A stretch of DNA of 21,054 nucleotides from Bacteroidales bacterium (lineage in GTDB: Bacteria; Bacteroidota; Bacteroidia; Bacteroidales; Bacteroidaceae), in the NCBI GenBank assembly GCA_030531335.1, contig JAUNNV010000029.1, positions 1 through 21,054 on the forward strand, in the 5' to 3' direction. Below are positions 4,519-21,054 of this stretch, piece after piece. Positions within the stretch are counted from its first letter, which is position 1, and each line of letters opens with the position of its first letter. Position numbers and translations under genes: made by a program. The notes beneath the pieces were generated by a model that saw only the letters and a list, made by a program, of their open reading frames with translations, was not told the DNA's origin and made no database searches.

Positions 4519-4549
4519 GTTTTGATGTGTTTTCGTTGTTTTACGTTGG

Positions 4550-4580: not shown

Positions 4581-4590
4581 ACAAATCGGC

Positions 4591-4624
4591 AAGAAAAAAC
4601 CCATATCCTCGAGAAGGATATGGG
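4591..4624 (-). terminator. Rho-independent terminator closing the long minus-strand operon
   Basis: The minus-strand RNA reads CCCAUAUCCU-ucucg-AGGAUAUGGG, a perfect 10-bp stem with a 5-nt loop (4600-4624), followed by UUUUUUCUU (4599-4591). It lies 45 nt after the stop of the 4670..7108 gene. No T-tract follows the hairpin in the plus orientation, so it is unidirectional. Confidence 0.85.
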
Positions 4625-4669
4625 CTTGATATTAGAACTTGGGGTGAGGGAGGAAATGACGGATGGGAA

Positions 4670-7108
4670 TCACATTTCGACCAAATGGAAGGAGGTCTGT
4701 CCTATCTGGAAGCTTTCGCCATGCCAGAGTTGATATTCCTTTCCAAGCGCGAGATATTTGCCCCCCTTCAAGGTGATGCCATCTACGGCACAGATACGCA
4801 CTACGCCATGCCTTTCATAAACCTTCACCTGCACGGGAGCCACGTCGCTTTGGAGATCCCAAGTGAGTTGCAAGGCGCAATCGACCGACTTGCCGATGGT
4901 GACAACTGTGTGAGGTGATGAGCGTAGCCATTTGTAGAGTGCGATGTCCATATCCTTGACAGATCCCGACACGTGCAGGAAAAAATGCTTGCCGACCGAC
5001 AAGGGTTGAGTCATGCACACCGCTATGGCCACACCATAGCCGATGAACACGAACAATGTCTTCATTAGTTCCGAAACCGTCTGTAGTTCCGCAACCATTT
5101 CCCAAAACAAAGTGCTCGCCACACCCACGACAGCCAGCATCAGCCACTGTCGCCTTTTGAGCCACAGGCGCGAATGATAGGTGGATACACAAGCGATGAC
5201 AAGTGTAGTCAGCACCCAAGGCAGCAGGTCGAACACAAACGAGCCCTCGTAAAGATTGAGCACGACAAGAGTGGCATTGTTGAAAACGAACACAAAAAAC
5301 ACGAGGACACACGCCACGGATGCCCGGACGAACTGCCCAAACAACCTTATGTGCCAACTATACTTGAACAACGTGAAGATTGACAGGGCAAAGGTAAGGA
5401 CGAAACCGATGATGCAACCAAATGTGGGAAGTGTATATAAACGTGAGGAGATGATGTCCAAATCCTGGGGGGAAAATGGGGATACACCTTGCTCGTGAAA
5501 GCCCAACAAGGAAATCGCGATACCATCGAAGAGGTCGAGAAAGAGTGAGCGAAAATGTGGATCCCACACAACCAACCAACCGATCGACGCCGCAGCGATG
5601 GCTACAAGGATCCAGCGTGTGAAGGGGGATGCGTTTTGAGGGTCGAGCAAGTTGGAACGGTTGTAATAATGCGAGCCATCGGGGCAATGCCTTCCATGTT
5701 CGGGGCAATGTTGTCCGTTTTCATTCCAACACTCCAAATGCATCACATGGCTGCATCTTGCCACGATACGGTCGCCCACGGCAAAGGGAGCCTTACAGTA
5801 ATAACATTCGTCGGGGATGGCGATGGCATTGATGCTCATGCGCCCCCCTGTATAGGTGAGGACATACTTGCGCTGAAAGATGACATAGCGTACAAATGGT
5901 TCCAACAGTTGCAAGGCCACGTAGGCGAGCAACAAGACCAGCAAGGCGATAATGATGCCGCGTGAAGCGATGTGGCCGGGCGATTTGTACCCACCGGTAA
6001 CGATTGGCACGTCAATGCTTCCGCACGCATATTCCTTGGAGCACCGGGCAATCAGGCTGTCGTTCCGGTCGTGGAAACTCAATTCCAGCCTGCGCGAACA
6101 GCCGTAGTAGATTTTCCCATCGGGATTCTCGAGCCGGATGGCGAAATCGGGATAGCCAATGCCGAAGGACGCGAAATTGTGTTTGCGCAACTCGACGGCA
6201 CTCAAACCATCGATGACACCCCCCCCCGATTGCTGGCAGAACACCTGCATCATATCCTTGTCGTCGGTGGAACTGTTTCCAGAGTCGGTCGAGGGAGTAC
6301 ACACGTAGCAAATGGCGGGTGCGGAAAACGAGGTGTCGGCGAGTTGTTGTAGGATTTGAGCCTGCACCCAGTAGTGGTCGGGGTCGAGAGGCGTATTGTC
6401 CGTCTCGTCATACACATGGCTGTCCGACAGTATCGCGATGGTGCGGTATGCAGCCGAGTCGAGAGGTGTTCCGGTGCCTTTGCGCAGTTTGCCGAGCATG
6501 AAGTACAAGGCACGATACACGTAAGGAGGAAGTTTGGTGTCGGACACACGATATTTGGAATTGCCGTTTACGTAATTGTCGATTACGTATGGCGAGACCT
6601 CCATGATAGGCGACAACTCGCCTTCGGAAAGGATGAACGAGATAAACACATTCCCATCGCCATACAGACGTATCAGCGAACGGATGTAGTCGCGTTCCTT
6701 TTCAAGCATGTCGGACGATTGGCACAAATCGACCATCAGCAGCAACTTGAGTCCCAACTTGGCATTTTCGGAAGCCACCACGTTGTTGAAGGAAACGACA
6801 TGTGGATGGGTCGATTCTGACCAAGGCACGAACTGGCGTTTCAGCTCCTTCACTGTCATGTGGATCAAGGAGCTGTCCTCAAGTAGGTATTTGTCCAAAT
6901 CATGGGTAATGTCCAACTCCAAGCTTATCTGTTTCACGTCGGTTGAAACGTTCATCGAGCGTATGGCCAAGGCATGGGTCTCGTGTTCGACCGAAGAAGG
7001 ATTCAACTCCGTGAACCGACTGCACGAGGCAAGTAGCAGAATGTATGGTAGCCAGACAGCAAACTGGCTGAAACGACGGAAACAACAAATTACAGACGGT
7101 TTCATCAT
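4670..7108 (-). CDS. Polytopic lipoprotein with four modules: periplasmic vWA-like domain, TM helix, cytoplasmic RING-H2-type zinc finger, six more TM helices, C-terminal FHA domain. Candidate membrane E3 ligase / signalling subunit.
   Basis: Lipobox LLLASC (Cys29). vWA-like strands are KLLLMVDLCQSSDM (a DxCxS degenerate MIDAS) and RTIAILSDSHVYDE. TM1 spans about aa 384-402. Residues 435-471 follow C-X2-C-X13-C-X-H-X2-H-X2-C-X7-C-X2-H, including CSHVMHLECW. By my hydrophobicity reading there are six further hydrophobic helices (aa ~497-700). The C-terminus VVTIGKSVDCALQLTW...VYERHGVVRICAVDGITLKGGKYLALGKEYQLWHGESFQIGQTSFHL is FHA-like. Confidence 0.7.
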   Translation of the reverse strand: MMKPSVICCFRRFSQFAVWLPYILLLASCSRFTELNPSSVEHETHALAIRSMNVSTDVKQISLELDITHDLDKYLLEDSSLIHMTVKELKRQFVPWSESTHPHVVSFNNVVASENAKLGLKLLLMVDLCQSSDMLEKERDYIRSLIRLYGDGNVFISFILSEGELSPIMEVSPYVIDNYVNGNSKYRVSDTKLPPYVYRALYFMLGKLRKGTGTPLDSAAYRTIAILSDSHVYDETDNTPLDPDHYWVQAQILQQLADTSFSAPAICYVCTPSTDSGNSSTDDKDMMQVFCQQSGGGVIDGLSAVELRKHNFASFGIGYPDFAIRLENPDGKIYYGCSRRLELSFHDRNDSLIARCSKEYACGSIDVPIVTGGYKSPGHIASRGIIIALLVLLLAYVALQLLEPFVRYVIFQRKYVLTYTGGRMSINAIAIPDECYYCKAPFAVGDRIVARCSHVMHLECWNENGQHCPEHGRHCPDGSHYYNRSNLLDPQNASPFTRWILVAIAAASIGWLVVWDPHFRSLFLDLFDGIAISLLGFHEQGVSPFSPQDLDIISSRLYTLPTFGCIIGFVLTFALSIFTLFKYSWHIRLFGQFVRASVACVLVFFVFVFNNATLVVLNLYEGSFVFDLLPWVLTTLVIACVSTYHSRLWLKRRQWLMLAVVGVASTLFWEMVAELQTVSELMKTLFVFIGYGVAIAVCMTQPLSVGKHFFLHVSGSVKDMDIALYKWLRSSPHTVVTIGKSVDCALQLTWDLQSDVAPVQVKVYERHGVVRICAVDGITLKGGKYLALGKEYQLWHGESFQIGQTSFHLVEM
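4673..4912 (-). other. FHA (forkhead-associated, phosphothreonine-binding) domain at the C-terminus of the 812-aa protein
   Basis: The pattern T-I-G-(K/R)-x...D..L...VS..HA-like is degenerate here (TIGKSVDCALQL...APVQVKVYERHGVVRI). It is followed by G(I)TLKGG...L..G..I.IG...F, which is typical of FHA C-terminal strands. Confidence 0.6.
5684..5806 (-). other. RING-H2-like zinc-finger motif within the 812-aa protein (aa 435-475)
   Basis: The segment is CYYCKAPFAVGDRIVARCSHVMHLECWNENGQHCPEHGRHC. Ligand spacing fits the RING-H2 consensus C-X2-C-X(9-39)-C-X(1-3)-H-X(2-3)-H-X2-C-X(4-48)-C-X2-C, with the last ligand His471 (or Cys475). Codons were checked: tgt at 5806-5804 and 5797-5795. Confidence 0.6.
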
Positions 7109-7110
7109 TG

Positions 7111-8076
7111 TCAGATGGTGGGATATTCGTTATCGTTAAATTGTGTCATGGACTTGTACTGCTTCGCCGCTTTCTTGGCGGCCTTCAGAGCGGCATATTT
7201 GCTCTTCATCATTGAAACAAACATCAGGATGATGGCTACGGCAGCCAAACTCATCAAGGAATCCTTCAGATGTTGCATCAGAGGCACATACTTCGCCTGT
7301 TGCACCTTGTCGGATTGCGCCTTTATCTCGGCGAACAACTGGCTGAGGCTGTCCATACGATTCTTTAGCGAAGGCACCAGCAATGCGGCTTGGGTGGCCT
7401 GTTGAAATGTTTGCTGCAATTCGGCAAAGGCGATTTGTTCCTTGGCTTGCAGCTGTTGCAGCAGAGGAGCCGTCTTGGCGGTCAGCGACAGCCTCTGGGA
7501 TTCCGACAGATATTGACTGTACTGATGCCGTTTCGATTCCAGCAGTTTTTCGGCCCGTGTAATGTCCTCCATCGCCTGCAGTCGGGCTTTTTGGGCTGCA
7601 ATCGAGTCCGACACGACTTGGAAGGTCACCTGAAAAGCCGTGAACTTGTCCATCAGAATCTCGTTTTCCACAATGTCTTGTTGTCGTACTTGCGTATAGA
7701 TATTCCATTGTACATTCACATTCTGCAACATCCGATCCAGTCCTTTTAATTCTGTCATCTTGGCCTGCGAAATACTTTTCCCGATATTGAGCAGTGTGGA
7801 TATGTATGCGTCCATCTCGCCCATCGTGGCGTTGGATTGTCCGCTTGGATGCGATGTCGTGGGTAAGTCTGAATAGACATCGAACTTTGTGGGCGTAGCC
7901 CATACAGACATGGTAGCCGATATGGTCACAAGCAGGATGGTGCAGAATGAGTAAACAACTTTTGTCACAATTGATTTCCTGTTATTGGCTTCGCCCATAA
8001 CAGACTGCGTCTCGGCATAACCAAGGTAGGCTTGCCTCTGCTCTTGGCTTGCGCTGTTATTCAAATTCACTGACAT
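7111..8076 (-). CDS. Hypothetical envelope protein: N-terminal TM anchor, Q-rich periplasmic coiled coil, C-terminal TM helix, short basic tail
   Basis: Part of ORF 7111..8232. Start is moved to MSVNLNN (ATG 8076) because 8077-8232 lies inside the upstream gene; M at 7998 is an alternative. TM helices are VVYSFCTILLVTISATMSVWA and LMSLAAVAIILMFVSMM. Coiled-coil heptads include LLQQLQAKEQIAFAELQQTFQQATQAAL. No family was recognised. Confidence 0.6.
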   Translation of the reverse strand: MSVNLNNSASQEQRQAYLGYAETQSVMGEANNRKSIVTKVVYSFCTILLVTISATMSVWATPTKFDVYSDLPTTSHPSGQSNATMGEMDAYISTLLNIGKSISQAKMTELKGLDRMLQNVNVQWNIYTQVRQQDIVENEILMDKFTAFQVTFQVVSDSIAAQKARLQAMEDITRAEKLLESKRHQYSQYLSESQRLSLTAKTAPLLQQLQAKEQIAFAELQQTFQQATQAALLVPSLKNRMDSLSQLFAEIKAQSDKVQQAKYVPLMQHLKDSLMSLAAVAIILMFVSMMKSKYAALKAAKKAAKQYKSMTQFNDNEYPTI

Positions 8077-9277
8077 GTTTGAAGAAATATTTCGCTGCTG
8101 TGTCGAAAATGCCATACGCACGACGCTGTTCTTCGTTGTATATGCCTTTTTCCTCAACACCTTGCTTGGTGACGTTGATGATGTCGCGACCCATAAAGTA
8201 GATATCGCGTCGTTCCAACTCATTTTTCGCAACCAGATTTTGCGCCACCAGTTTGTCTAATTGACGTGCCGCTCGGACAAGTGCTTCGGGCGAAATACCT
8301 GTGCCGTAGAGCACGCTGCCCTCTTCCGTCAGCTCTACCGGGACGGCGCATTTCAGGGATTCAATCGAATCCACGTAGTTGTTGTAACTGTCGCGCACCA
8401 TATTCACATCGGCACATGACGATTTCGTCTCTATCGGTTGGAATTTCGACAACAGAAATTCTTGATGTTGCTTGAACACGCCGACCTCCTCGGCGGATTC
8501 CACCTTGCCTGAAGGACATATCTGATGGAGCTTCCGATACGCTTTCCGGATATCCATCAACTTGGCTTTCATGACAGCCAACGCCTCTTGTTGACCATGG
8601 CAAGGATTGCGGGCCAATGCCACCCGACAAGTAAGGTCAAGATCGTGATCGAATACTATCTCGTATTCCCGTCCTTTCTGAGTGTCTTTCAACACATCCA
8701 CCACCATGATGTTGCGAATGCGCAACGTCACATCGGATGCCTCCGGATTCACCTTGAACCGTTGTGTCAAAATTTTCTGACTTAACTTCGGCAATGTCTG
8801 AGGCGAGTCTGTCGCACTTGTCGGCAGATAGGTAGCAGGACAGGCAATGGTGAGCGAGGCGGAGTTCGGTTCCACCCAGGCATTGATAAGGTGATGGCGG
8901 CGTTTCTTCCGATACGACTTATACACCGATTCTCTTAGGTAATATTTCGAATTAGGCTCTACCAGCACCTTATATTGCAATTTCTCGGCATGAAGCCGAC
9001 GTTTGCCAAGAAACGGATGGGTAAACACATCGTTGTAGGATACGTCCTGACGGAAAGCCATGAAATCGCGATTGCCAGACAACGTGAGAACCAACTCGTC
9101 GGCAGCCTCTTCGAAAGCAAGCGTCAGGTCAAGCTCCAAGCCTTTGTCGTCGAAGGCAATCTGTATTTTCTCCTGATAAGGCGTGTCGGCATCCACACGC
9201 ACGTTTTTGGTCTCTTGAGCCTGTGCCAGGGCAGCACAGCAGGCCATGAAAAGGCAGAAGAATTTAGTCTTGGTCAT
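8057..9277 (-). CDS. Hypothetical secreted/periplasmic protein (406 aa), no recognisable family
   Basis: Signal peptide MTKTKFFCLFMACCAALAQAQE. The ORF is long and well-formed with normal composition. Its start overlaps the E2 stop by 14 nt, and its stop overlaps the next gene's start. Confidence 0.65.
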   Translation of the reverse strand: MTKTKFFCLFMACCAALAQAQETKNVRVDADTPYQEKIQIAFDDKGLELDLTLAFEEAADELVLTLSGNRDFMAFRQDVSYNDVFTHPFLGKRRLHAEKLQYKVLVEPNSKYYLRESVYKSYRKKRRHHLINAWVEPNSASLTIACPATYLPTSATDSPQTLPKLSQKILTQRFKVNPEASDVTLRIRNIMVVDVLKDTQKGREYEIVFDHDLDLTCRVALARNPCHGQQEALAVMKAKLMDIRKAYRKLHQICPSGKVESAEEVGVFKQHQEFLLSKFQPIETKSSCADVNMVRDSYNNYVDSIESLKCAVPVELTEEGSVLYGTGISPEALVRAARQLDKLVAQNLVAKNELERRDIYFMGRDIINVTKQGVEEKGIYNEEQRRAYGIFDTAAKYFFKHVSEFE

Positions 9278-9860
9278 AATATATCCAATTGTTTGGTTCT
9301 CCTTGTGTCCGAACCCAATAGGCTACTTTCAAATCCTCTGGGTAAGGAGGTTCGGGCAGTGCATGGTAGATTTCGTAGCGCAGATACAGTGCGATGCGTT
9401 CCACAGCCCATGCCAAACTGCTGTGTGTGTTGGGCATGTTCACACACACACGTCCTGCCAGGCTACCATGATACCCTATGTTGGGATGCCAAGGCAACGT
9501 GTCGCCCACAAAACGGAAGCAAGGCATAGCATCTACCTGAGGATAACGTTCGGGAAGTTTTATCTCCATCCGAAACTCATGGGCGAAAATAGGACTGCCA
9601 TCCACATTCACCCCACAGATACATTTTATAAAATAGTCTATCGAGTAGGCCGTAGGGATTCCTTCAGGGGTGGCATCGACCACTTGCATGGCGATGTCGT
9701 TGCGTTGTTTCACAAAGGCGGCAAGCTGCTCCCACTCGTAAAACAGTCGGTGTGCGCGTCCTCGAAGAGGCTTGTTCTGAAACCAGCTTGTCCCGGGCGA
9801 AGTCAAGGAAAGGGGTTTACCCTGGGAATGGATCGGGGATGAGGAAAATTGTGTCGCCAT
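9264..9860 (-). CDS. UBC-fold ubiquitin-conjugating (E2)-like enzyme
   Basis: The segment FRMEIKLPERYPQVDAMPCFRFVGDTLPWHPNIGYHGSLAGRVCVNM reproduces the E2 core signature: F.l.i.fp..YP..pP...F.....HPNi....G.iC. HPN is aa 125-127 and the candidate catalytic Cys is Cys139 (tgt at 9446-9444). The ATG at 9860 overlaps the Ubl gene by 44 nt; a TTG at 9806 is an alternative start. Confidence 0.75.
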   Translation of the reverse strand: MATQFSSSPIHSQGKPLSLTSPGTSWFQNKPLRGRAHRLFYEWEQLAAFVKQRNDIAMQVVDATPEGIPTAYSIDYFIKCICGVNVDGSPIFAHEFRMEIKLPERYPQVDAMPCFRFVGDTLPWHPNIGYHGSLAGRVCVNMPNTHSSLAWAVERIALYLRYEIYHALPEPPYPEDLKVAYWVRTQGEPNNWIYYDQD

Positions 9861-10140
9861 TGTTCACATTATAGTCGGCAAGCGTCTGTTCGGTTTTCCC
9901 AATGCGCGGCCGCATCACGCGAATCTCGTGCACGACCTCGTCTTCTTTCCCAAAGAAATAATCGAGGGGTGCTCCTGTGCTGTCGATGGAGGGAAAGTCG
10001 AATATCAGTCGGCCATCTTGTCCGGTTGAATGTTTCAGGTTGTTCATCAATGCGCCCAATGGGAGTTGCGGATTGATGACGCGGAACTTCACCTTTTTGT
10101 CCTTATAGACAATGTTAATGAAAAAATCGTCTTGGTGCAT
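9817..10140 (-). CDS. Ubiquitin-like (beta-grasp) protein whose ORF ends in Gly
   Basis: 107 aa. The strand-strand-helix opening is FINIVYKDKKVKFRVINPQLPLGALMNNLKH. The C-terminal EQTLADYNVNNGDTIFLIPDPFPG parallels ubiquitin's [22 protein letters not shown]. The last codon is ggg (9822-9820), directly followed by a TAA stop (9819-9817). It sits directly upstream of the E2. Confidence 0.65.
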   Translation of the reverse strand: MHQDDFFINIVYKDKKVKFRVINPQLPLGALMNNLKHSTGQDGRLIFDFPSIDSTGAPLDYFFGKEDEVVHEIRVMRPRIGKTEQTLADYNVNNGDTIFLIPDPFPG

Positions 10141-10163
10141 GTTTCGTCAATGATGGTTGATGG

Positions 10164-11927
10164 TTATTTGCTACGCGAATCTAAGTCAATCTTCACTTGG
10201 ATGGGGCAGATGCCCGTAGTACGCACCTCCATGAGCCTTTGTAGGTGATTTTCGATACTGGCAAAATGTTTTCCCAACGCACGTTTCACATACATGTTGT
10301 CGTGGAGCACGATACCTACCACGATGCAATAAGCATGATAGCTACCTCGTGTAAGCACCTGCTTGTGCGTACGTATGGAGGCTATCATTTCCTGCTCTAC
10401 ATTGAACCGTGTGGCCAATTCCTGATAACAAAACAACTTTAGATCTGTTTCGGTGACAAGCCGGTCGTCGGTGGCTATGAAGTAGCGTGTAGCCGTCCTC
10501 ATGGCTTCCTCGGACAACAATTCGTCGTATCCTGGTTGAGGAATCGTCACTTGATGGGATTTGGACTGGTCGAAACCTGGGGGTACCACAAACACGGCAT
10601 CGGAGGTGAGCACACTGTTCACTACAGCTCCGTTAGTGGTCAGATAGCCGACATTGAGTGAAGTGTTTTCTGGGCTTTGTCGAAGGGTGTCGCCCCAACT
10701 ATCCTTCGAGCGTTCGTGAGGAATGCCGGCAAACATCAGATAGACACCCTCGTGCGAGGTTCGCAAATGTGGATGCGTGTGTTGCGACAACTCCTTCAGG
10801 TTGTTGCGCAGGTTGTGCATCACCATGTCGGTATATTCGTTGCCCATGGCCTGAAACGCATAATAGTCGGATGTGTATTTGTCGATGAGGCCCGACAACA
10901 ACCTGTGCAGCCTCCCCTCGTTGAACCTGTCGGCACCTATGCGCCGCACCTGTAGCCGGACATTGCCTAATAGTTGGTCCTCGTCGGGACGTAGCAGATG
11001 AAGAAACTGCCCATTGTTCTTGTCATCGATACGCTGTATAGGCGCATCGGCCGAGAGGGTGGCTGTTTTCACTTCGGCGTTCACTATCAAGGCGATGTTG
11101 ACAAGCAAATCGCTCTCTTTGAAAGAAAAGTTGTCGTCGATGCCGTCGAACTCGAAGGTGAGTTCCATGCGATCAATGGCATCGATATCGTCCATTTCAT
11201 CTACGACATACAGCAATAGGTTTTGTCGGGCATACAAATCCAGGGCGCAGAAGTTGCGATAGGCAGCCATGCCTTGGAACACGTTGCCCGAACGTACGGC
11301 TTGCGACTGATTGTAGAGCAACGTATCAAGCGAGAAACAGTCGGCACACGGCAGATTCGCAAAGTCCCACGGTGCGATGAGGGGTATTTCCCTATCGCTC
11401 ATGCTTACACGCAGGCCATGGAAATCCTGGTTCTTCAAGGCAAACGCAAGGCCTTTTAGGCTTTTCACCTTGTGTGGAAAGAACATATTGACTTGCCATC
11501 TCCTTCCATCCACGCGCCTCAGCCCATCCATCTCCACCTGTATGGCTTTGGTCTTGAGCAAGGGGATGAAGTTGAAGTTGTTGTTGTCGGTTCCTTTTAA
11601 GATGAATCTCATGGACGAATCGACATCCATTTCCGTCACATTGGGCATCAGAGCCAATTGCACGACGGCTGTGGCTGGAATGGCCTTGACTGGTTCGTTC
11701 ACGCAAAGCATGTTCTGGAACTCGTCGAGCAGCTCCGTCCGCAATGCCTCCAACTCGTTGTCCGACTCGTTGAATTGATAGGCCAGTGCCGTAATCAGGA
11801 ACTTGAACAGCGGATCCGAATCCAGTCCCTCAAGACTGTCGCTTCTGTTGTTGCGGTGCCAAATATCCACACATTGGGCCATCAGCTCCTTGGCGCGTTG
11901 TCTTATTTCAAATATGTTCTGTCTCAT
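10164..11927 (-). CDS. tssF: TssF-like (phage gp6-like) baseplate wedge subunit
   Basis: 587 aa, the typical TssF size. The N-terminus IRQRAKELMAQCVDIWHRNN...DSDPLFKFLITALAYQFNESDNELEALRTELLDEFQNML...IPATAVVQL matches the remembered TssF N-terminal layout: a helical segment, the DP(l/h)v..Ll motif, then PAhAv. It is positioned directly after a gp25/TssE gene. Confidence 0.6.
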   Translation of the reverse strand: MRQNIFEIRQRAKELMAQCVDIWHRNNRSDSLEGLDSDPLFKFLITALAYQFNESDNELEALRTELLDEFQNMLCVNEPVKAIPATAVVQLALMPNVTEMDVDSSMRFILKGTDNNNFNFIPLLKTKAIQVEMDGLRRVDGRRWQVNMFFPHKVKSLKGLAFALKNQDFHGLRVSMSDREIPLIAPWDFANLPCADCFSLDTLLYNQSQAVRSGNVFQGMAAYRNFCALDLYARQNLLLYVVDEMDDIDAIDRMELTFEFDGIDDNFSFKESDLLVNIALIVNAEVKTATLSADAPIQRIDDKNNGQFLHLLRPDEDQLLGNVRLQVRRIGADRFNEGRLHRLLSGLIDKYTSDYYAFQAMGNEYTDMVMHNLRNNLKELSQHTHPHLRTSHEGVYLMFAGIPHERSKDSWGDTLRQSPENTSLNVGYLTTNGAVVNSVLTSDAVFVVPPGFDQSKSHQVTIPQPGYDELLSEEAMRTATRYFIATDDRLVTETDLKLFCYQELATRFNVEQEMIASIRTHKQVLTRGSYHAYCIVVGIVLHDNMYVKRALGKHFASIENHLQRLMEVRTTGICPIQVKIDLDSRSK

Positions 11928-11943
11928 CGTTATGCACCCTTCA

Positions 11944-13589: not shown

Positions 13590-13631
13590 GCCTTTATGTC
13601 ATTTTATGATGGATTTTGGTTTCGCGACTCA

Positions 13632-14432
13632 TCATTCATAGTCCTTAATTACGATATTGTAGTTCATGATTTTCCCTTCCTCCGACTTGCCCTTGGCTCC
13701 TGCCTCAAACAGGCAGTCGAAAGGAATGAACCGGCTGTGCACAAATGCAAGCATACGTTCCCATCGTTTGGTAAGGTCGGCGTATGCGGTGGCTGTCAGA
13801 CCATCCACACAAATGTCGTAATGCACTTTTTGCATCCAAAAGCGTGTGTTGTCGCATTCGTTGTACGCCGACAAACGCATCCGCACCGGATAACCCGTGA
13901 CAACGCTCAGCAATGATTTTACAAACGACAAGTTGCCACGGAGTTTGGCCACGTATGGCAGCAACACCGCCACCTTGCGCACATACTCGTCCGTTTCCGC
14001 CTCCAAGTCGAACTTGTAGGATGTTTTTAACACGAATTCGAGCTTGCGGGCCAGCAAGTCGGCCACGATGTGTTCCCGCTTCAGCTTCTGCCTGAACATG
14101 AACGAGTCGATGGGTAGGAAAGTTTCTGACAGTGTCCTTATCCGCTCATGCAACTGTTGGGCAAGCTGTTTGAAATCGCCTTTTCGTTTCCTTCCGAAAC
14201 GGTCGGATGCCTTCAGCTCATCCTCCGATCCTAAAAACAAGGGAGGCAGATAGTGTAGGAAGCCGTTGCGCGAAAGCGATACGATTGCTTCCTTCGGATT
14301 GATGGACAACACATCCGGCGCATAGTTCCTGCTGAAGGAACCTTTCTGATAGGCCAGCCACTTGTCTTCCAGCTCTGGATACAAATAGTTGAGCAACAGT
14401 TCCGCACTTATCTCGTGCCTGTCGGTTGTCAT
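13632..14432 (-). CDS. Possible TssG-like baseplate subunit (tentative)
   Basis: 266 aa, in the TssG size range. The C-terminus YDICVDGLTATAYADLTKRWERMLAFVHSRFIPFDCLFEAG resembles the TssG tail pattern (igpL....f..flP.g....l..lv..flP..l). It lies among baseplate genes. Evidence is weak and pattern-level only. Confidence 0.35.
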   Translation of the reverse strand: MTTDRHEISAELLLNYLYPELEDKWLAYQKGSFSRNYAPDVLSINPKEAIVSLSRNGFLHYLPPLFLGSEDELKASDRFGRKRKGDFKQLAQQLHERIRTLSETFLPIDSFMFRQKLKREHIVADLLARKLEFVLKTSYKFDLEAETDEYVRKVAVLLPYVAKLRGNLSFVKSLLSVVTGYPVRMRLSAYNECDNTRFWMQKVHYDICVDGLTATAYADLTKRWERMLAFVHSRFIPFDCLFEAGAKGKSEEGKIMNYNIVIKDYE

Positions 14433-15478
14433 AGTTCCACGTACCTATATCCTGTTGGGGTCTTTATTCTCACAATGTCGTGTGCTGGAATGCCCAACGC
14501 AGCCAATGGCAGCGTGGGGTAGGGGAACGAGGTGTCTATCTCCGCATATTCGTGTTGGCATAGTTTCGCCATCGGTATGGTCGAAAGTCGTGGATGTTGC
14601 TTCACGAAGCCAGCCATTCGGCGTGCCGGCAGCATTGCTTCCGTCTGTTCGCCCGTCTCTCGATTCTCTACATAATCCACAAAGGCATCGTTGAGCACCA
14701 CAGTGCCAATCCGCAGGAGTGATTTCAGCGAGTGTTCCCTGACTACTTCAATAGGCTCCCATTGCTCGTGCAGCACGCAATCGTCATCCCACGCCTCGAA
14801 CACGGCTTTCCGCACACTCAGGTTTTCGCCATCGTAGTAGCACATGTTTCGTTCCACTGGCACGCCTGCAATCACTTTCAATGCTTCGGCTGCTTGCCAG
14901 GCTCCTATCACGCTGGCCGCCACTGATGTGGTAGGGGCATGGCCAGCCGCTTCCATTTGCCGTATCACGCCCGAACAAGGCATCCGTCGGCGCAACTCGT
15001 CCAGTCCTTCCGTCCCGAGGCCACAAGCGTAGCAGTTCACGCCGGGCACAAACACCCGCATCGTCCCCTCCATGCCGATGATGCCACCGTCAATCCATGT
15101 CTTTCCTGCCCTCGTACAGAGGCGCTGGATGCAATAGCGGGTCCACCGGCTATCGACGCATCCCATCACCACGTTCATCTGCCGTATCAATGCCAATCCC
15201 ACATCGTATGCCACATCGCCATGGATGGCCTGCACATCGACGGTGGCGTTGATGCCTCTCAGCGCGTCCTTCACCACATCCACTTTGCGCCGACCCACAT
15301 CGACTGGCCTGAACAGGATGCTTCGTGTGAGGTTGCCCTGTTCCACCACATCGAAATCGACCACCACCAGATGCCCCACTCCAAGCAGTACGAGGTTTTT
15401 GAGCACCTCGTTGCCCAGGGCCCCACATCCCACCACCATGATGCGGGCATCGCGCAGCTTGTCTTCTTCGATGTTCAT
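14429..15478 (-). CDS. ThiF/MoeB/E1-like adenylyltransferase (Ubl-activating enzyme candidate)
   Basis: Start is set at MNIEEDKLRDARIMVVGCGALGNEV (ATG 15478, forming an ATGA overlap with the upstream stop). The Rossmann GxGxxG is at 15413-15430. Other family motifs are VVDFDVVEQGNLTRSILF, GRRKVDVVKDAL, VVMGCVDSRWTRYCIQRLC and GTMRVFVPGVNCYACGL. A crossover-loop Cys lies in RRRMPCSGV. About 130 extra C-terminal residues end in LAALGIPAHDIVRIKTPTGYRYVEL. Confidence 0.8.
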   Translation of the reverse strand: MNIEEDKLRDARIMVVGCGALGNEVLKNLVLLGVGHLVVVDFDVVEQGNLTRSILFRPVDVGRRKVDVVKDALRGINATVDVQAIHGDVAYDVGLALIRQMNVVMGCVDSRWTRYCIQRLCTRAGKTWIDGGIIGMEGTMRVFVPGVNCYACGLGTEGLDELRRRMPCSGVIRQMEAAGHAPTTSVAASVIGAWQAAEALKVIAGVPVERNMCYYDGENLSVRKAVFEAWDDDCVLHEQWEPIEVVREHSLKSLLRIGTVVLNDAFVDYVENRETGEQTEAMLPARRMAGFVKQHPRLSTIPMAKLCQHEYAEIDTSFPYPTLPLAALGIPAHDIVRIKTPTGYRYVEL

Positions 15479-16200
15479 CCGATTGGTAGTTTGTCCTGAA
15501 TGCTGTTGAAGACCTTGTCGAGCTTCATGCTCTGTCCGCCTTTTGTGATGTCCGTTGTGGATGTATCCTTCGCATTGCCGGCCACATGGCGGTTGTAGGC
15601 TTCCTCGATTTCCTTTTTCTTGTCGTTGTAGAGTCGTTCCATCATTTCGGAATACGTGTCGAAAATTTCCTGCAACTTGTCCTTGGCCTCTTTTACCGCC
15701 TCTTCCGAGCTTCCTACAGTGCGACTGGCTACCGCAGACGCAGCCCTCGTCTTTTCTGCCTCGATTTTCGTCTTGCATTCCGAGTAGAGTGCATCGGTGG
15801 CCGTGTCGAGTAAATCCTTGCGTTCCTTATTTACATCGGGCATCGTGAGCAGTAGGTATTTGGCATCGATGCCATTCTCATCGTCTGCCCCAGGAGCAGT
15901 TTCGAGCGTCACCTTGAATTCCGGATGCACTTCCGTGATGCCTTTGTAAATGCAGGAGAAGTACGCCGAATCCTTTGGATATACATTCATCATGTGTTTT
16001 TCGTTCTCATCCTCGTGCACTAAAATGTCGGCCACGTCCTCAATGCGTTTGTCCATGCCACCATACACCATCTCCACTCCCAGCAACGAAGAGGGATCGG
16101 CCTTGACACACACGTTGCAGAACAGGTACGACATGCTTGCCACATGTCCCAGCATCCTGTTCTGTGTTTCTATCAATGCGACTTCTACCGATCGTTTCAT
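15475..16200 (-). CDS. Hypothetical protein with apparent ribosome-recycling-factor (RRF)-like fold
   Basis: 241 aa. Three segments align by eye to E. coli Frr as I remember it:
- [32 protein letters not shown]...[18 protein letters not shown] versus [52 protein letters not shown].
- [38 protein letters not shown] versus [38 protein letters not shown].
- [25 protein letters not shown] versus [25 protein letters not shown].
It also has an insertion and a ~45-aa C-terminal extension. Confidence 0.4.
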   Translation of the reverse strand: [241 protein letters not shown]

Positions 16201-16239
16201 TTGTTATTTGCCATTTACCATATTCTCTAATATCTCTTA

Positions 16240-16629
16240 CTATTTGCCCTCTGCAAGGCACGCATTGCCGGGGAAGTTCACGGAGATGTTTCCACCCCAG
16301 TTGCACATACATTTGCAGTTGTCGAGCAGTGCAGGCATTTGTTTTACCATTTCTTTTCCTCCAGGCATCCATGGAGCGGCTATCACTGGCATGCAGGGCA
16401 TGGGCGTAAGTGCTCCGAATGCTGCAGCCGTGGCCGCAGCCACCTGAGGATTCGACAAGCTTTGGCACATGCCGAAAGGCATGATGTTCATCATCGGCTT
16501 GTTGTCGCCGATGTTTCCTATGGGTTTCCCCTGTACCTTTGGTCGGGTGGGATCCACCACCATGAAGTTGGAAGGAGCCATCCCGAACGAGCACTGCAGG
16601 ATTGCTCCGGCCGTTACGAATTTTCCCAT
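16240..16629 (-). CDS. DUF4280 (PAAR-like) domain protein, candidate spike-tip protein
   Basis: 129 aa. FVTAGAILQCSFGMAPSNFMVV...VQGKPIGNIGDNKPMMNIMPFGMCQSLSNP...TPMPCMPVIAAPWMPGG...QMPALLDNCKCMCNWGGNISV matches the DUF4280 pattern (A.l.Cs.G..Ps.l.v...g.p.a...D....NI.pFG.C...nP...PC.P....W......g.paL...s.l.C..gG.I). Confidence 0.75.
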   Translation of the reverse strand: MGKFVTAGAILQCSFGMAPSNFMVVDPTRPKVQGKPIGNIGDNKPMMNIMPFGMCQSLSNPQVAAATAAAFGALTPMPCMPVIAAPWMPGGKEMVKQMPALLDNCKCMCNWGGNISVNFPGNACLAEGK

Positions 16630-16638
16630 TGTATTTTT

Positions 16639-18432
16639 TTATTTTCCTACTTCCTCTTCCTTCATCTTTGCCGACGCTTTTCCTGGTGTCGAGGCTGCCG
16701 GCACGGCCACACCGTCTGTGATGTTCTGCGACTTGAACGACGAAGAGGCCTCCAAATTCTTGAACACGCCCTTGGGAGCCGTGGTGTCGCCCTTGATGTC
16801 GGTCTTGCCTTCTATGGTGGTGTCGCCCTTCAGCGCATTCTTGCCTCCACCTGCCGTAAGGTTTCCGCCTTCGAGCGTAATCACTGCCTTTCCTTCTCCC
16901 TGCTGCAGTTCGGTGGTGGTGTTGCCCATGATGCCCACTTGCTCGGCAGCTATCTGCACCAGTTTGCCCTTGGTTTTCTTGTCCTTGCTGCCAGCAAGCA
17001 GCTTTTCCGCCACAAGTACCATCTGCGAACTGGCGGCCAGTGCCTTGTCCGTGCGTTTCTCCTTATCCACATCCATGGCTGCCACCTGAATGTTCTTGGC
17101 GTTGAGTGTCAGTTCGCCTGTAGCCATTCCTTCGGTGTCGGTAGCTTCTATCTTCATTTTCTCTGCCCTGACAAGCAGGGTGCCATCCTTGGTCAGTGCC
17201 TTCTCCTGCCGTTTTTTGTCCTTCAGTTCCTCGTCGATGGCCTGTATGGTGACATTCTTCGAGGTAATCACCACGTTGCCCAAAGCGGGTATGTCGCCTT
17301 TTTCGCCCTTCTCGTCGAGTTGGGCGGAGGCTGTGGAGAGGTTCACCTCCTGTAGGTTGACGTTCAGTGTGCTGTCGGCCATCAGTGCGCCCTTCGTGTC
17401 GTGTGCCACCACGTCGATGTGAGGCATTTGTACATACAATCCGGCTTCGGCGTTCTGGCGCAGGTTGCCGTCGCCGTCGGTCGAGACCATGCTTACGAAT
17501 TCGGAACGCAGGGCGATGTGCGACGAGGTGGTGTTCTTGTCGAAATCGGCACTGGCTTTGCCGAGCTCCTCTTTGGTGTCCTTCAGGGCCTGTGCCTTCC
17601 GATTGAGTTCGGCTTCGGACGAAAGCAACCTGATGTAGTCGGTCAGTGAGGAGTAAAGCATCCGTTCCAGGTCCTGGAACTTGTCGGCCAGATCCGACAA
17701 CTCGGGTTGGTTCGCCCGCAGGTGTTCCTCCGTGTCGTTCAGTGTGTCCTGGCTTTTTATGAGCTTTTCTATGTCGTCCAGGTTTTTCAGCACCGTCTTC
17801 TTGGCATTGGCAGCCAACTTCGCAATGTCGCCACTGTATTTTTCCAAATCTTTCACACGCTCGTCGATGGCGGCGGTCTGTAGTTTGTTCGACGGTGTGG
17901 CGCTTATCGCCACATAAGAGTCCGCATGTATGTCGATGCCGGTGCTACAGCTGCCTGCTTCGGCCACGAACGCGCCGGTGGTGTCGTTGCTCTGCAGGGT
18001 GATGGCGCGAGCTTGGTTCACGATTTCGGAGTTCATGCACACCACGTTCTCCATGCCGTCGGTACCGGGATCCACGGCGATGTGGCGAATGCTGGCTGCT
18101 CTCGACACGATGCTTCCCCCTATGTCGGGAGATCCTGTACCCTCCAGGCTTACGCGGTTTCCGCGTATCACCACCGTGCCGCCTCCGCCATGCTCTCCCA
18201 TCAGCTCGCCGCTGCGGTTCACGTTGCCGATGATGACCGTCGGAGCCGAAAGAATGAGGCATTGGTCGTCGCGCACGTATTTCACGCCGCTCACCGTGTG
18301 ATGGATTTCCTCCCTCAGCCGTCGCACCTCGCTTTTTTGCTTGCGGATTTCCGCAACGTCCTTTCTCACGCTGCTTTCGAAAGCCTCCAGTGCCTGCTTC
18401 AGGTCGTCAAGAATATATGCCATCTTTTTCAA
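16639..18432 (-). CDS. Hypothetical protein with three parts: N-terminal coiled coil, central coiled coil, repetitive beta-solenoid-like C-terminal half
   Basis: 597 aa. Periodic units of the type x-L-x-A-K-N-I-x-V-x-A-x-D recur: VVITSKNVTIQAIDEE, LLVRAEKMKIEATDTE, LTLNAKNIQVAAMDVD, AVITLEGGNLTAGGG, DTTIEGKTDIKGDTT. No gp27/gp5 (VgrG) signature was recognised. It lies 9 nt upstream of the PAAR-like gene. Confidence 0.55.
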   Translation of the reverse strand: MKKMAYILDDLKQALEAFESSVRKDVAEIRKQKSEVRRLREEIHHTVSGVKYVRDDQCLILSAPTVIIGNVNRSGELMGEHGGGGTVVIRGNRVSLEGTGSPDIGGSIVSRAASIRHIAVDPGTDGMENVVCMNSEIVNQARAITLQSNDTTGAFVAEAGSCSTGIDIHADSYVAISATPSNKLQTAAIDERVKDLEKYSGDIAKLAANAKKTVLKNLDDIEKLIKSQDTLNDTEEHLRANQPELSDLADKFQDLERMLYSSLTDYIRLLSSEAELNRKAQALKDTKEELGKASADFDKNTTSSHIALRSEFVSMVSTDGDGNLRQNAEAGLYVQMPHIDVVAHDTKGALMADSTLNVNLQEVNLSTASAQLDEKGEKGDIPALGNVVITSKNVTIQAIDEELKDKKRQEKALTKDGTLLVRAEKMKIEATDTEGMATGELTLNAKNIQVAAMDVDKEKRTDKALAASSQMVLVAEKLLAGSKDKKTKGKLVQIAAEQVGIMGNTTTELQQGEGKAVITLEGGNLTAGGGKNALKGDTTIEGKTDIKGDTTAPKGVFKNLEASSSFKSQNITDGVAVPAASTPGKASAKMKEEEVGK

Positions 18433-18469
18433 TTTAGGGTTGTCCTATCAATAGGCTTTGTCGAGGTTG

Positions 18470-19768
18470 TCACCATTCGATTTTCTTACCCAACACATAG
18501 TATTTCATGTCGTTGTACCAAAGTACTCCCTCGCCATTGGCTACGGTGTAACTGGTATAATATGAATTGTCCTTGGGCCTGGGATTTATCAATTCAGGCT
18601 GTGAGAACCATATCGGCTGCTCGGCTCCCGGCACAAATTGTCCTTTGAGTAAGAAGAGTGGCCCACGATTTTGGTATGCCGTAACGTCGTTGTAGTCAAA
18701 GGTGTTGTGGACAATGGCGAAGTACTTGCCGCTGAACGCCTCTGGCCCCTCCCAGTCGTATAGAGGGCAGGGAGAGCGGGGATGTGGAATGGGCTTGCCT
18801 CCATCCTGGAAACAGAGGATCTTGGGCCTCGACCATGTTCTGCCGTGGTCGGAACTGACCGACCATACAGGAGAACCTACAGAGCTACGCATCATGGCAA
18901 AGAGACGCCCGTCGGGGAGACCTACGATGGCCGCTTCTTCGATTGCAGGCCCCTCCTTGATGCCATAATTGGTCGCTCCCACAACCTGGCTGACGTCAAA
19001 GGCATCCTTGTTGGTGTTGAAATAGGATATCTTGATGTCTTCTATCTCCGGGTCATCATCAATGTTGTCGAACTGCCAGAATTCCACGCGGCATTGCTTT
19101 TTCTCGTCGTAAGGGGCACGGCCATGGCGTGAGCAGCCTACGATGAACTTGCCACCCTCGCCCAACCTCAACGGACGTTGCCAGTTGCACCATTCCGCAG
19201 GCACGAGCGGGTCGGGAGAATCCATATCCATGCGTGGCATCGCTATGCTCTTCGGCTTGCTCCAGGATAGTCCGGCATCATCGGAATAGGCACCAAACAA
19301 GGCACCGTGATGAATCTTGTCTCCATTGACTTGCTGGTTCCATAGCAGGTAAAGACGACCGCTCTTCGACAGCATGGGTTGTTGCCAACTGGCCAATGGA
19401 CGAGGATTGGACCGTGTCTCAGAACCTTGCAGAAGAACTGGCTTCGACCAGGTCTTGCCGCCATCCATGCTTCTGGAGAACACGATGTGGTGGTCTGGTT
19501 CTCCTTCACGTGTGGCCTGGGTCCAAAAACAGTAATGCATGCTTCTGGCCTCGTCGTAAATCACCTGTATATGGTCATTGTAGGTGTCGCCCCTAAGTTT
19601 GGGATCCGCCTTTTTCCAGTCTTGGGGCTGTTTGGGCACATAGACCACATAGTTTGGTTTGGTGGTCATAATATCTTCTTTTTGCTTGTCCTGAGCTGCT
19701 GCTGATGTGACCATGGACAGAAGAAGACAAAGCACGATAGCATTACGCGGATAGTTGCATGTAATCAT
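18470..19768 (-). CDS. Secreted BNR/Asp-box repeat beta-propeller protein (sialidase-fold family; substrate unknown)
   Basis: Signal peptide MITCNYPRNAIVLCLLLSMVTSAAAQD. It has three Asp-box motifs (S-x-D-x-G-x-T/S-W): SRSMDGGKTWSKP, SDDAGLSWSKP and SSDHGRTWSRP. I did not see a clear sialidase RIP motif. Confidence 0.7.
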   Translation of the reverse strand: MITCNYPRNAIVLCLLLSMVTSAAAQDKQKEDIMTTKPNYVVYVPKQPQDWKKADPKLRGDTYNDHIQVIYDEARSMHYCFWTQATREGEPDHHIVFSRSMDGGKTWSKPVLLQGSETRSNPRPLASWQQPMLSKSGRLYLLWNQQVNGDKIHHGALFGAYSDDAGLSWSKPKSIAMPRMDMDSPDPLVPAEWCNWQRPLRLGEGGKFIVGCSRHGRAPYDEKKQCRVEFWQFDNIDDDPEIEDIKISYFNTNKDAFDVSQVVGATNYGIKEGPAIEEAAIVGLPDGRLFAMMRSSVGSPVWSVSSDHGRTWSRPKILCFQDGGKPIPHPRSPCPLYDWEGPEAFSGKYFAIVHNTFDYNDVTAYQNRGPLFLLKGQFVPGAEQPIWFSQPELINPRPKDNSYYTSYTVANGEGVLWYNDMKYYVLGKKIEW

Positions 19769-19783
19769 ATTTCCTATTGTGAA

Positions 19784-21054
19784 TCAGGATTTCTTTAGGT
19801 AATCCTTTAAGCCATTAAGCCCCGCATTCAGCACAGGCTCCCAGCCGTTTGATGCCAGGTTGAGCTGGTAGGTGTGCTGTGCACTGTTCGAAACCAATAT
19901 GTTGCCATTGCTCGCCACGTCCCAGAGGACACGCGGACCGGCACAGCCATTCCTGTTAAAGAGTTTCTGGCCACTGTCGAACACTTTCACGTTGTCGTCC
20001 TCGACAGTCACTGCACCGCTGGTGATGACGGGTAGGAGTTCGGCACCGAGTGCCGTCGCGAAGCTGTTCAATACGCCACCCTCCTTATCCTTGGGATCGT
20101 TCTTAAACTCTATCCCATTGATGAGGTCATTCCATTGTTCATCATTGGCAACGTCACCTATTATCGGATGTGTTATTTGATCGTTGTATATATCCAATAT
20201 GGCGACAAACACCGTTCTTTTCATTCCTTTTTTGTCGGAAAGTATGGAAGAACCAAGGATTTGCTCCCGACCTTCTTTCGAATTAAATGTTGCTACAAAC
20301 AGTGGCCAATTATTGCTCCCTTGTAATTTTTTCTCTCTTTCGAGCTGCTGATTGATTTTTTTCAACAATTCATCTTTAGTATGTTCGTTGATGTAGTCAA
20401 GATGGCGCTTTAAAGTATCGAAATTATTTTTAAATTTTCTCAAACTTTCCGTGATTTCAATATTGTTTTCTTTACCATCTGCTGGTTGTAGCTGTGGACA
20501 TAGGTTGTCTGTGATATAATTTAACAGTTCTTCAGATGATTTTGTTTTCAGTGTTTGTATTGTGGACTGGCTTGTGTCATTTAGCTTGTTTTCTTCTGAA
20601 TTAAAAAAAGACAGATGAGTGTGAAATTCATTGGATAGTTTTCTGATTGTTTCTTCTGAAAATTGGATCTCTTCATAGAATGTGTTTATCACACGAGTAG
20701 CCTCTATCAACACGCCCTCTATCGTAGAACCCAAGTCTTTTGCCGCTTTTTCATCCTTATTCATGTGGTTCTTCCAACCTTTGGAAGCGTAGTTCGACAT
20801 CAGGGATGTGGGAATCATTGCCTTGCCTTTTCCTGCCGTCATGGTGACATTGCGGTTCGACTTGATGGACAGAGTCCCCTCTACGGGTCGCATCAGCACT
20901 TCCCACAGGCTACGCAGGAACGACAGATCGGAGAGCTTGGTGGGGTCGAATGTCAGGAAATTCTTCGCCTGTTGTGTGGCTATTTGAGCTGCAATACCTC
21001 CCGCGATGGATCCGAGAATAACGCCAACAATCTCACCGCTACTTGGATCATTCG
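19784..21054 (-). CDS. 5'-truncated CDS (open to the window edge): hypothetical protein with a glycine-zipper-like hydrophobic segment, a K/E/N-rich helical middle and a globular C-terminal domain
   Basis: The track ORF 19784..20899 begins at a GTG. My manual translation upstream stays open to the edge: NDPSSGEIVGVILGSIAGGIAAQIATQQAKNFLTFDPTKLSDLSFLRSLWEVLMRP... The true start is therefore either outside the window or at an internal GTG/ATG (20899/20893). No family was recognised. Confidence 0.6.
   Translation of the reverse strand, partial: NDPSSGEIVGVILGSIAGGIAAQIATQQAKNFLTFDPTKLSDLSFLRSLWEVLMRPVEGTLSIKSNRNVTMTAGKGKAMIPTSLMSNYASKGWKNHMNKDEKAAKDLGSTIEGVLIEATRVINTFYEEIQFSEETIRKLSNEFHTHLSFFNSEENKLNDTSQSTIQTLKTKSSEELLNYITDNLCPQLQPADGKENNIEITESLRKFKNNFDTLKRHLDYINEHTKDELLKKINQQLEREKKLQGSNNWPLFVATFNSKEGREQILGSSILSDKKGMKRTVFVAILDIYNDQITHPIIGDVANDEQWNDLINGIEFKNDPKDKEGGVLNSFATALGAELLPVITSGAVTVEDDNVKVFDSGQKLFNRNGCAGPRVLWDVASNGNILVSNSAQHTYQLNLASNGWEPVLNAGLNGLKDYLKKS

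Follow-up and report, generated by a model that had tools for sequence, protein, structure and literature searches.

A candidate ubiquitin-like cascade interleaved with baseplate genes in a Bacteroidales type VI secretion operon

In the subtype iii (GA3) type VI secretion system (T6SS) from Bacteroides fragilis, the membrane complex is TssNQOPR (PMC10781749, PMC4714493). TssN has a cytoplasmic EccD-like domain that has been called ubiquitin-like, and TssN binds TssK; the lipoprotein TssR has a domain that is vWA-like (PMC10781749). Here, we describe a locus from a Bacteroidales bacterium in which the genes for T6SS baseplate subunits are interleaved with genes for a ubiquitin-like protein (Ubl), an E1-like activating enzyme, an E2 conjugating enzyme, and a candidate membrane E3. 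The stretch that we analyzed (the window) takes up the whole of a contig, 21,054 bp long, from a metagenome-assembled genome (MAG). The block of genes in question is the promoter-distal half of a Bacteroidales T6SS locus that is related to Bacteroidota subtype iii, and we consider it likely that the operon includes, as an integral part, a ubiquitin-like cascade by which some component of the secretion machine is modified at the inner membrane.

The locus resembles T6SS-iii in several ways. The window encodes TssE, TssF, TssK, and a PAAR-like protein, the envelope genes adjoin the baseplate genes, and both machines include a ubiquitin-fold element and a lipoprotein. Also, homologous loci (numbered with an L below) encode TssC and TssD of the Bacteroidetes type (PF17541, PF17642) as well as ClpV and VgrG. 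In contrast to T6SS-iii, the Ubl of the window is a free protein that ends in glycine and is accompanied by an E1, an E2, and a RING finger, while in TssN the ubiquitin-like domain is fused, and the window's TssF and putative TssG are too divergent for Pfam. The envelope proteins also set this locus apart: none of the three matches TssNQOPR or any other Tss membrane-complex family in Pfam or NCBIfam (where the presence of models for the five TssNQOPR proteins was not verified), and the precomputed Pfam annotation of neighboring genes, again a comparison at the level of sequence, shows no TssN-R match either. It seems that the envelope parts of this lineage differ from the known ones or are very divergent versions of them, and the three envelope proteins probably replace the TssNQOPR complex of B. 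fragilis. Neither ThiF nor ubiquitin enzymes come up in the papers on GA1-GA3, and the survey of these architectures noted two loci that lie outside of the three. We considered whether the window is itself of a GA1-GA3 architecture and rejected this, given that no ThiF or ubiquitin genes are listed there and that there is no TssN-R match here.

Other described systems share some features of the locus. The Bil (BilABCD) and Bub systems (PMC10557695, PMC11601596, bioRxiv 10.1101/2023.09.04.556158) also combine an E1, an E2, and a Ubl with a C-terminal glycine; the Ubl of Bil (8tyx, 8tyz) has a similar fold, and the target of Bil is a structure related to contractile tails. They differ from our locus in that they form a compact cassette of four genes, which in Bil are contiguous and encode a Ubl, an E2, a JAB deubiquitinase, and an E1, whereas here there is no JAB in the annotated neighborhoods, a RING E3 candidate is present, and the genes are interleaved with secretion genes. 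Also, the E1 is closer to the eukaryotic enzymes UBA1, UBA6, and UBA7 than to BubCD. The YukD and EccD proteins of type VII secretion systems (T7SS) are similar in another respect: the nearest folds to our Ubl include EccD5 and EccD3, and in both cases the ubiquitin-like protein belongs to a secretion machine at the cytoplasmic membrane. To our knowledge, neither YukD nor EccD undergoes conjugation or has E1, E2, or E3 partners, in contrast to the terminal glycine and the full enzyme cascade that are conserved here. In the Prok-RING_1 (PF14446) systems, a membrane-associated RING is linked to an E1, an E2, and a Ubl, as in our locus, and 19 of 21 members of our RING protein family match Prok-RING_1, below threshold. 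Burroughs, Iyer, and Aravind reportedly predicted, in 2011, prokaryotic gene neighborhoods with a RING finger, E1, E2, and Ubl, and their abstract is said to have proposed the conjugation of YukD-like Ubls. Finally, Fha/TagH of proteobacterial T6SS-i, together with PpkA/PppA, places an FHA domain on the cytoplasmic side, where the T6SS membrane parts and the baseplate meet, and couples it to protein modification, as may be the case here. The modification in those systems is threonine phosphorylation; in our locus we saw no kinase or phosphatase, and the FHA domain is fused to a polytopic membrane protein that bears a RING.

The conserved, interleaved order of the genes is, in terms of comparative sequence analysis, the strongest evidence that links the cascade to the T6SS. 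We scanned for the TssF family, taking one genome per species, and obtained 73 Bacteroidales loci. The order E1, putative TssG, TssK, TssE, TssF, Ubl, E2, and three envelope genes is kept in every locus that is long enough except for L071 (discussed below), with identity in TssF across the 73 genomes falling to 33-47%. The carriers come from Prevotella/Xylanibacter (including Xylanibacter ruminicola), Alistipes, Parabacteroides, Bacteroides, Mediterranea, Millionella, and Caecibacteroides. The order is the same on a contig from a metagenome that carries the Ubl and that one source assigns to the Paludibacteraceae. A preliminary description of this DNA had argued that the conjugation enzymes and the baseplate subunits function together, and had taken the tight packing and overlaps of the genes as the strongest sequence-level argument for this. 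That they belong together is borne out by the ten-gene order in the 73 loci, which is a far stronger argument than the overlaps. The median identity to the window's proteins is 73% for the Ubl, 62% for the PAAR-like protein, 50% for E1, 49% for E2, 41% for TssE, 38% for TssF, 37% for the putative TssG, 32% for TssK, and 27-34% for the three envelope proteins. Thus, the Ubl is the best-conserved protein of the block (73%, versus 27-41% for the baseplate and envelope proteins), and a modifier that is better conserved than the machine around it would parallel ubiquitin.

The Ubl (9817..10140; this and all of the genes of the block are on the minus strand) has 107 amino acids and ends in ...DPFPG, followed by the stop codon. 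Its structural model, for which the alignment was built from database proteins, is a beta-grasp with a ubiquitin/EccD-like fold (predicted local distance difference test, pLDDT, of 87.8). Besides EccD5 and EccD3, the Foldseek matches include the Ubl of Bil (8tyx, which is among the top matches, and 8tyz), SUMO, and the ubiquitin of Caldiarchaeum. The region of the C-terminal strand also resembles ubiquitin in sequence (QTLADYNVNNGDTVFLI versus RTLSDYNIQKESTLHLV). All of the recovered copies of the Ubl (74/74) end in DP[FI]PG directly before the stop codon. Because the protein ends at this glycine, it would be made in its mature, conjugatable form.

The E1 (14429..15478) has a ThiF-type adenylation domain (Pfam ThiF, E = 1.4e-51) and a C-terminal domain of about 100 amino acids. 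Within the family, the GxGxxG nucleotide loop, D130, the zinc site C149xxC152...C234xxH237, and a loop cysteine, C168, are invariant, and C168 is a candidate for the thioester cysteine. The E1 profile is closest to the active adenylation domains of the eukaryotic UBA7, UBA6, and UBA1 (E ~1e-33); MoeB, MccB, and ThiF come after these in rank, and BubCD follows far behind. The E2 (9264..9860), which has a UBC fold and whose start lies 44 nt inside the Ubl gene, matches Pfam UQ_con with E = 4.8e-6 and a score of 26.7 bits, versus a cut-off of 27. The E2 family has the invariant motif PWHPNI...AG.VC.N, with H125-P126-N127 and C139 invariant, and the family profile matches UBE2K (E = 0.0025) with the HPN and the cysteine aligned.

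The candidate E3 is encoded by the last gene of the block (4670..7108, 812 amino acids) and was recognized from family profiles and a scan for transmembrane (TM) helices. It is a lipoprotein with seven TM helices: the conserved lipobox Cys29 is followed by a periplasmic domain of about 350 amino acids, TM1, a RING-H2-like finger (433-482), six more TM helices, and a C-terminal FHA-like domain. Because the number of helices between the RING and the FHA domain is even, both should be cytoplasmic. The residues C435, C438, C452, H454, H457, C460, W461, C468, C475, and H480 are invariant. The window's own protein matches a RING finger weakly. Across the family, zf-RING_2 matches 21 of 21 members, Prok-RING_1 matches 19 of 21 (best E = 4.6e-5), and FHA matches 9 of 21 (best E = 2.9e-8). 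The periplasmic domain has motifs that appear to resemble a vWA domain. Just upstream is a membrane protein with a coiled coil and with hydrophobic segments at its N- and C-termini (7111..8076, with its start at 8076 or, more likely, at 7998, as judged from a hydrophobicity scan and a comparison of N-termini). The genes for the coiled-coil and RING proteins lie 2 nt apart in the window and are fused to a single ORF (open reading frame) of ~1050-1070 amino acids in L006, L007, L012, L020, and L065. These fusions in five loci imply that the two proteins work together. The remaining envelope protein (8057..9277, 406 amino acids) has an N-terminal signal peptide and is found in 70 loci with a median identity of 27%; it has no family match.

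The baseplate genes were assigned, in one case putatively, by different means. The TssE or gp25-like wedge protein (11944..12387) was identified by sequence (Pfam GPW_gp25, E = 3.8e-10; NCBIfam TssE, E = 2.6e-7). The TssK-like subunit (12384..13589, from a family of 401 amino acids) matches NCBIfam TssK with E = 9e-4, and 20 of 23 family members match Pfam T6SS_VasE, with a best E value of 9.4e-6 that is below the cut-off. TssF (10164..11927, 587 amino acids, gp6-like) was identified from the fold of its AlphaFold model, as it had no sequence match in Pfam or by profile against PDB sequences. Despite a mean pLDDT of 69, the best matches of the model were 6n38_I (E = 6.6e-14) and 6n38_H (3.2e-13), then 6giy, and the next-best were gp6-type wedge proteins of contractile injection systems and of T4. 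The 266-amino-acid product of 13632..14432, whose start overlaps the E1 stop, is a putative TssG-like wedge subunit by position and size; it has no match in Pfam, NCBIfam, or PDB sequences, including by family profile. Indeed, searching PDB sequences with the profiles of the putative TssF, TssK, and TssG families gave nothing useful. The assignment of the whole block to a T6SS is also supported by the homologous loci L003 and L004, which have ClpV, TssC, two to three copies of TssD (Hcp, of Bacteroidetes-type Pfam families), and VgrG upstream of it; L002 and L078 also carry VgrG. In the window, the contig ends within the VgrG-like gene.

Most of the gene labels of the preliminary description were right. 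In particular, we agree with its E1 (by the ThiF match), E2 (by the invariant HPN...Cys motif), Ubl (by the beta-grasp model with a terminal glycine), gp25 (by GPW_gp25), and TssK-like labels (by T6SS_VasE in 20 of 23 family members, below threshold), and its ribosome-recycling-factor-like label is supported by a Pfam RRF match above the gathering score. The TssG-like label is not supported by any sequence match and is putative, from the position and size of that gene. Missing from the preliminary description were the RING in the last gene and the membership of the block in a T6SS.

Fifteen minus-strand ORFs fill positions 4670-21054, and each of the 15 is in frame with a single stop codon. 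We recomputed all of the minus-strand junctions directly from the sequence, and this reproduced the 14 junctions of the preliminary description, along with its three ATGA stop/start overlaps (15475-15478, 14429-14432, and 12384-12387) and three longer overlaps (44 nt at 9817-9860, 14 nt at 9264-9277, and 20 nt at 8057-8076). The gaps are 15, 37, 9, 39, 42, 16, 23, and 2 nt, so the junctions range from −44 to +42 nt. The earlier statement that no gap exceeds 42 nt holds for the starts as called, and not if alternative starts are used: the 37-nt gap depends on the TTG start at 18432 and becomes 46 nt with the next ATG (18423), and the 20-nt overlap, which is the weakest call of all, becomes a gap of 58 nt if the gene at 7111..8076 starts at ATG 7998. 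Homologs of this gene start a few residues before the N-terminal hydrophobic segment, and in the closest relative (L002) the gap is 69 nt, so we favor ATG 7998 over 8076. The 44-nt overlap of Ubl and E2 is supported, because six relatives (L002, L005, L006, L012, L020, and L062) have no alternative start between the Ubl stop and the conserved core of E2. We also considered TTG 9806 as the E2 start, which would leave a 10-nt gap, and rejected it, as the closest relatives lack that stretch and must use the ATG inside the Ubl gene. This start (window 9817-9870, minus strand) is created by codons for Asn-Gly that are conserved in the Ubl (aATGGc), and in the window's subclade the first 14 codons of E2 are a reading, in another frame, of the sequence that encodes the invariant C-terminus of the Ubl.

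Across the loci, the median junctions are −4 to +26 nt. The overlap of the E1 stop with the next start is widely kept (4 nt in 43 of 71 loci and 1 nt in 10 of 71, or 53/71 together). The other specific overlaps are not: the junction of the first and second envelope genes is −4 in 20 of 71 loci, and the −44 overlap of Ubl and E2 is restricted to the window's own subclade. The distances between genes within operons have their peaks at −4 and −1, with most of them under 50 nt, and all 14 of the consecutive same-strand junctions in the window are at most ~60 nt, which matches the operon statistics for one transcription unit. The packing is real, but it is ordinary for a long bacterial operon, and the overlaps most likely reflect ordinary compaction together with the coupling of neighboring cistrons. 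The preliminary description had gone further and argued that the enzymes and baseplate subunits are made in fixed stoichiometry. We do not retain this view, as co-transcription and stop/start overlaps do not set the ratios of proteins. The wedges of T6SS baseplates contain unequal numbers of TssK, TssF, TssG, and TssE that come from a single operon (PDB 6N38, 6GIY), and E1 and E2 are catalysts and not stoichiometric subunits.

Our proposal for how the locus works begins with a single mRNA, which would start at a promoter beyond the end of the contig and end at the hairpin at 4627-4597. Ribosomes would re-initiate at the ATGA stop/start overlaps. (Bacteroidetes rely little on Shine-Dalgarno sites, and re-initiation at ATGA would suit them.) E1 would adenylate Gly107 of the Ubl and form a thioester with it, with Cys168 as the candidate, and the Ubl would be handed on to Cys139 of E2. 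The RING finger would lie on the cytoplasmic side of the inner membrane, flanked by TM1 and the bundle of six helices and beside the FHA domain, and it would direct the Ubl onto a lysine of a T6SS component, for which the candidates are the RING protein itself and the subunits of the baseplate, spike, or tube. As this relay would sit where the baseplate must dock, the modification may control the docking, assembly, or turnover of the machine. A more specific version is that the cascade is an obligatory part of the T6SS, in which the membrane RING E3 covalently attaches a free EccD/YukD-like Ubl to a subunit of the baseplate, spike, or membrane complex and so licenses assembly or firing; we offer this version tentatively, as a possibility that may well prove wrong.

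Several observations weigh against this proposal. Conjugation, its target, and any effect on the T6SS are things that we infer, as opposed to the domain identities, catalytic motifs, topology, and conservation that we observe. The RING and FHA matches are below the curated cut-offs of Pfam in every member of the family, and the last pair of zinc ligands in the RING does not have the canonical C-x2-C spacing. The assignment of TssG, made from position and size, is putative. One locus, L071 (Prevotellaceae MAG contig CAMEQD010000023.1, 5686-15598), is rearranged, with the order TssK, TssE, TssF, putative TssG, Ubl, E2, three envelope genes, and a PAAR-like gene, and it has no detectable E1 on either strand within the 19 kb examined. 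There is no JAB deubiquitinase in the annotated neighborhoods, and hence no sign of a regulatory cycle that is reversible. (Expulsion or degradation of the tagged part with every firing could account for this absence.) Finally, the 5' end of the operon is missing from the contig, and promoters may exist inside the coding sequences; the scan for them covered consensus motifs.

It could also be that the Ubl, E2, and E1 form a separate antiviral module, mobile and of the Bil or Bub kind, which entered a T6SS operon by chance and acts on phage proteins and not on the secretion machine. The known bacterial E1-E2-Ubl systems are antiviral (PMC10557695; bioRxiv 10.1101/2023.09.04.556158), the E1 partially matches the 'E1-E2' models of PADLOC, and Bil modifies a phage tail structure, phage tails being homologous to the T6SS; the high rank of the Bil Ubl 8tyx among the Foldseek matches points the same way. 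But the PADLOC matches cover the generic adenylation domain only, with none for the Ubl; in the PDB, the E1 matches BubCD far less well than it matches the eukaryotic E1s (7e-11 versus 3e-33); and JAB, which is a core component of Bil and Bub, is absent from the annotated loci. Furthermore, the supposed module is split: the baseplate genes lie downstream of E1 and upstream of Ubl and E2, and it is an envelope protein that carries the RING. This interleaved order has been kept in 73 species-level genomes in which TssF has diverged to 33-47% identity. Chance insertion of an antiviral module is therefore highly improbable, and we reject the identification of the locus as a Bil-type defense system, given the lack of a JAB, the four baseplate genes that split the set, and the conserved interleaving. 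Another idea, which we regard as improbable though a little less so, is that the Ubl is a non-covalent structural adaptor, like YukD and the Ubl domains of EccD and TssN, and that E1 and E2 perform some other chemistry or act as chaperones. The lack of a deubiquitinase would fit an adaptor, as would the proposal that the ubiquitin-like, EccD-like domain of B. fragilis TssN docks the baseplate, with an interaction of TssN and TssK having been shown (PMC10781749). An adaptor does not readily explain why every one of the 74 Ubl copies ends exactly at the glycine after DP[FI]P, why the catalytic HPN...Cys motif of E2 and the ATP-binding residues, zinc ligands, and loop cysteine of E1 are invariant, or why a RING finger is always present. 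Without thioester transfer, it would be difficult to account for purifying selection on all four of these catalytic signatures.

A separate question is whether the block is really one transcript. With internal promoters in coding regions, the spike, baseplate, and envelope genes might instead each have an mRNA of their own, and the short gaps would be due to genome compaction. Long T6SS clusters elsewhere are generally known to have several transcription units in many cases, and in other clades the gaps before Ubl or after E2 reach 65-125 nt and occasionally 250-300 nt, which leaves room for promoters. The largest gap in the window, with the alternative start, is 58 nt, and no gap in the window can accommodate a full −33/−7 promoter plus a leader. 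On its coding strand, the block (16.4 kb) has a single copy of TAnnTTTG, the −7 motif of Bacteroidetes, which lies inside the last gene; about 3 copies would be expected (the mean for shuffled sequence is 7.9 for both strands of the 21-kb window), while the 4.6 kb outside of the block has seven copies, one of which lies just after the terminator and before an NfeD-like gene. A scan for sigma-70 promoters was uninformative (16 found versus 15.6 expected), and this is the wrong model for Bacteroidetes in any case. No RNA family was found in the window with Rfam. As for termination, an intrinsic terminator (4597..4627, minus strand) lies 43 nt past the last stop codon: a hairpin with a 14-bp stem, followed by the U-run UUUUUUCUU, folds with −19.5 kcal/mol (z = −4.8), which none of 200 shuffled sequences equals. 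Terminator-like sites are as frequent as expected overall (18 found versus 17.8 from shuffles), this one is the best in the region, and the others on the minus strand have stems of 5-9 bp, so that within the block the consensus scan found no internal hairpin of comparable strength. Also, the six stop/start overlaps preclude termination between those pairs of genes. We thus confirm the preliminary description's single convincing terminator and, with all of the genes on one strand, short or negative junctions, and that terminator after the last gene, we support its single transcript as well. Motif-level evidence would fit one long transcript, and the genes very probably form one transcription unit; several separate transcripts seem unlikely.

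The operon continues beyond the window: the first gene (19784..21054) has no start in the window and its frame is open to base 21054, so the operon is truncated on its 5' side. A database look-up with the window's TssF returned only a 2.3-kb contig, and the upstream part of the operon was not recovered. The product of this first gene, which is cut by the end of the contig, corresponds to the C-terminal part of a VgrG-like spike protein plus a C-terminal extension; by tblastn, it is 37% identical to the C-terminal part of a 1176-amino-acid ORF of L002 with Phage_base_V (VgrG). The extension begins near a glycine-rich hydrophobic segment (EIVGVILGSIAGGIAAQIAT), has a GC content of 0.42-0.45 (versus ~0.52), and matches no family. 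It may be a toxin domain of an 'evolved VgrG' that was acquired by recombination.

The next gene (18470..19768) encodes a beta-propeller that is similar to BNR/sialidase proteins (Pfam BNR_2, E = 9.7e-16), with a signal-like segment at its N-terminus. Because this gene is absent from all 77 of the other loci that we examined, its site between VgrG and the following gene looks like a variable slot for cargo, an effector, or an immunity protein. The following gene (16639..18432 with the TTG start, or to ATG 18423) encodes a 597-amino-acid protein that is conserved in 40 loci (median identity 41%) and has no match in Pfam or NCBIfam; it has a long coiled coil and repetitive stretches that are rich in Gly and Thr. 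It may be an unrecognized component of the T6SS that is associated with the spike or the tube. Then come a PAAR-like spike-tip protein (16240..16629; Pfam DUF4280, E = 1e-30; NCBIfam IglG PAAR-like, E = 7.7e-10) and a protein that is similar to ribosome recycling factor (15475..16200; Pfam RRF, 46.5 bits versus a cut-off of 29.7), whose stop overlaps the E1 start (ATGA). The gene for the latter is present in 28 related loci, and in L003 and L004, the loci that were read at this position, a PEGA-domain protein takes its slot.

Downstream of the terminator (2482-4584, minus strand) are an unrelated NfeD-like gene and then an SPFH/Band-7 gene, which are a classical pair, preceded by a promoter motif of the Bacteroidetes type (TATATTTG at 4557-4550, with TTTG upstream). 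Two long ORFs overlap almost completely on opposite strands: the one at 34-2382 (plus strand, 782 amino acids) has a weak Pfam match to HHH_3, and the one at 499-2289 (minus strand, 596 amino acids) has none.

A T6SS variant with an integral ubiquitin-like cascade is undescribed or barely described: we found no account of a ubiquitin-like cascade that is interleaved with a T6SS in the full-text literature, a search that did not cover the 2011 article by Burroughs and colleagues. More than 70 species of Bacteroidales, from the rumen, the gut, and the chicken caecum, carry E1, E2, RING, and Ubl interleaved with baseplate genes. By their genome titles, the carriers include strains and not just MAGs: Xylanibacter ruminicola D31d, Parabacteroides distasonis An897, and Bacteroides mediterraneensis An793, as well as Millionella massiliensis, Mediterranea massiliensis, and Caecibacteroides pullorum. 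Such carriers can be cultured, which makes the idea directly testable. Experiments have so far connected ubiquitin-like conjugation in bacteria with antiviral defense, and a role in a secretion nanomachine, if true, would give it a new function. For the first time, protein tagging of the ubiquitin type would be seen to control a secretion machine of bacteria. Such a role would also connect the Ubl domains in the membrane proteins of T7SS and T6SS-iii, which are not conjugated, to true conjugation systems, and it would suggest how this lineage manages in the absence of the TssNQOPR complex.

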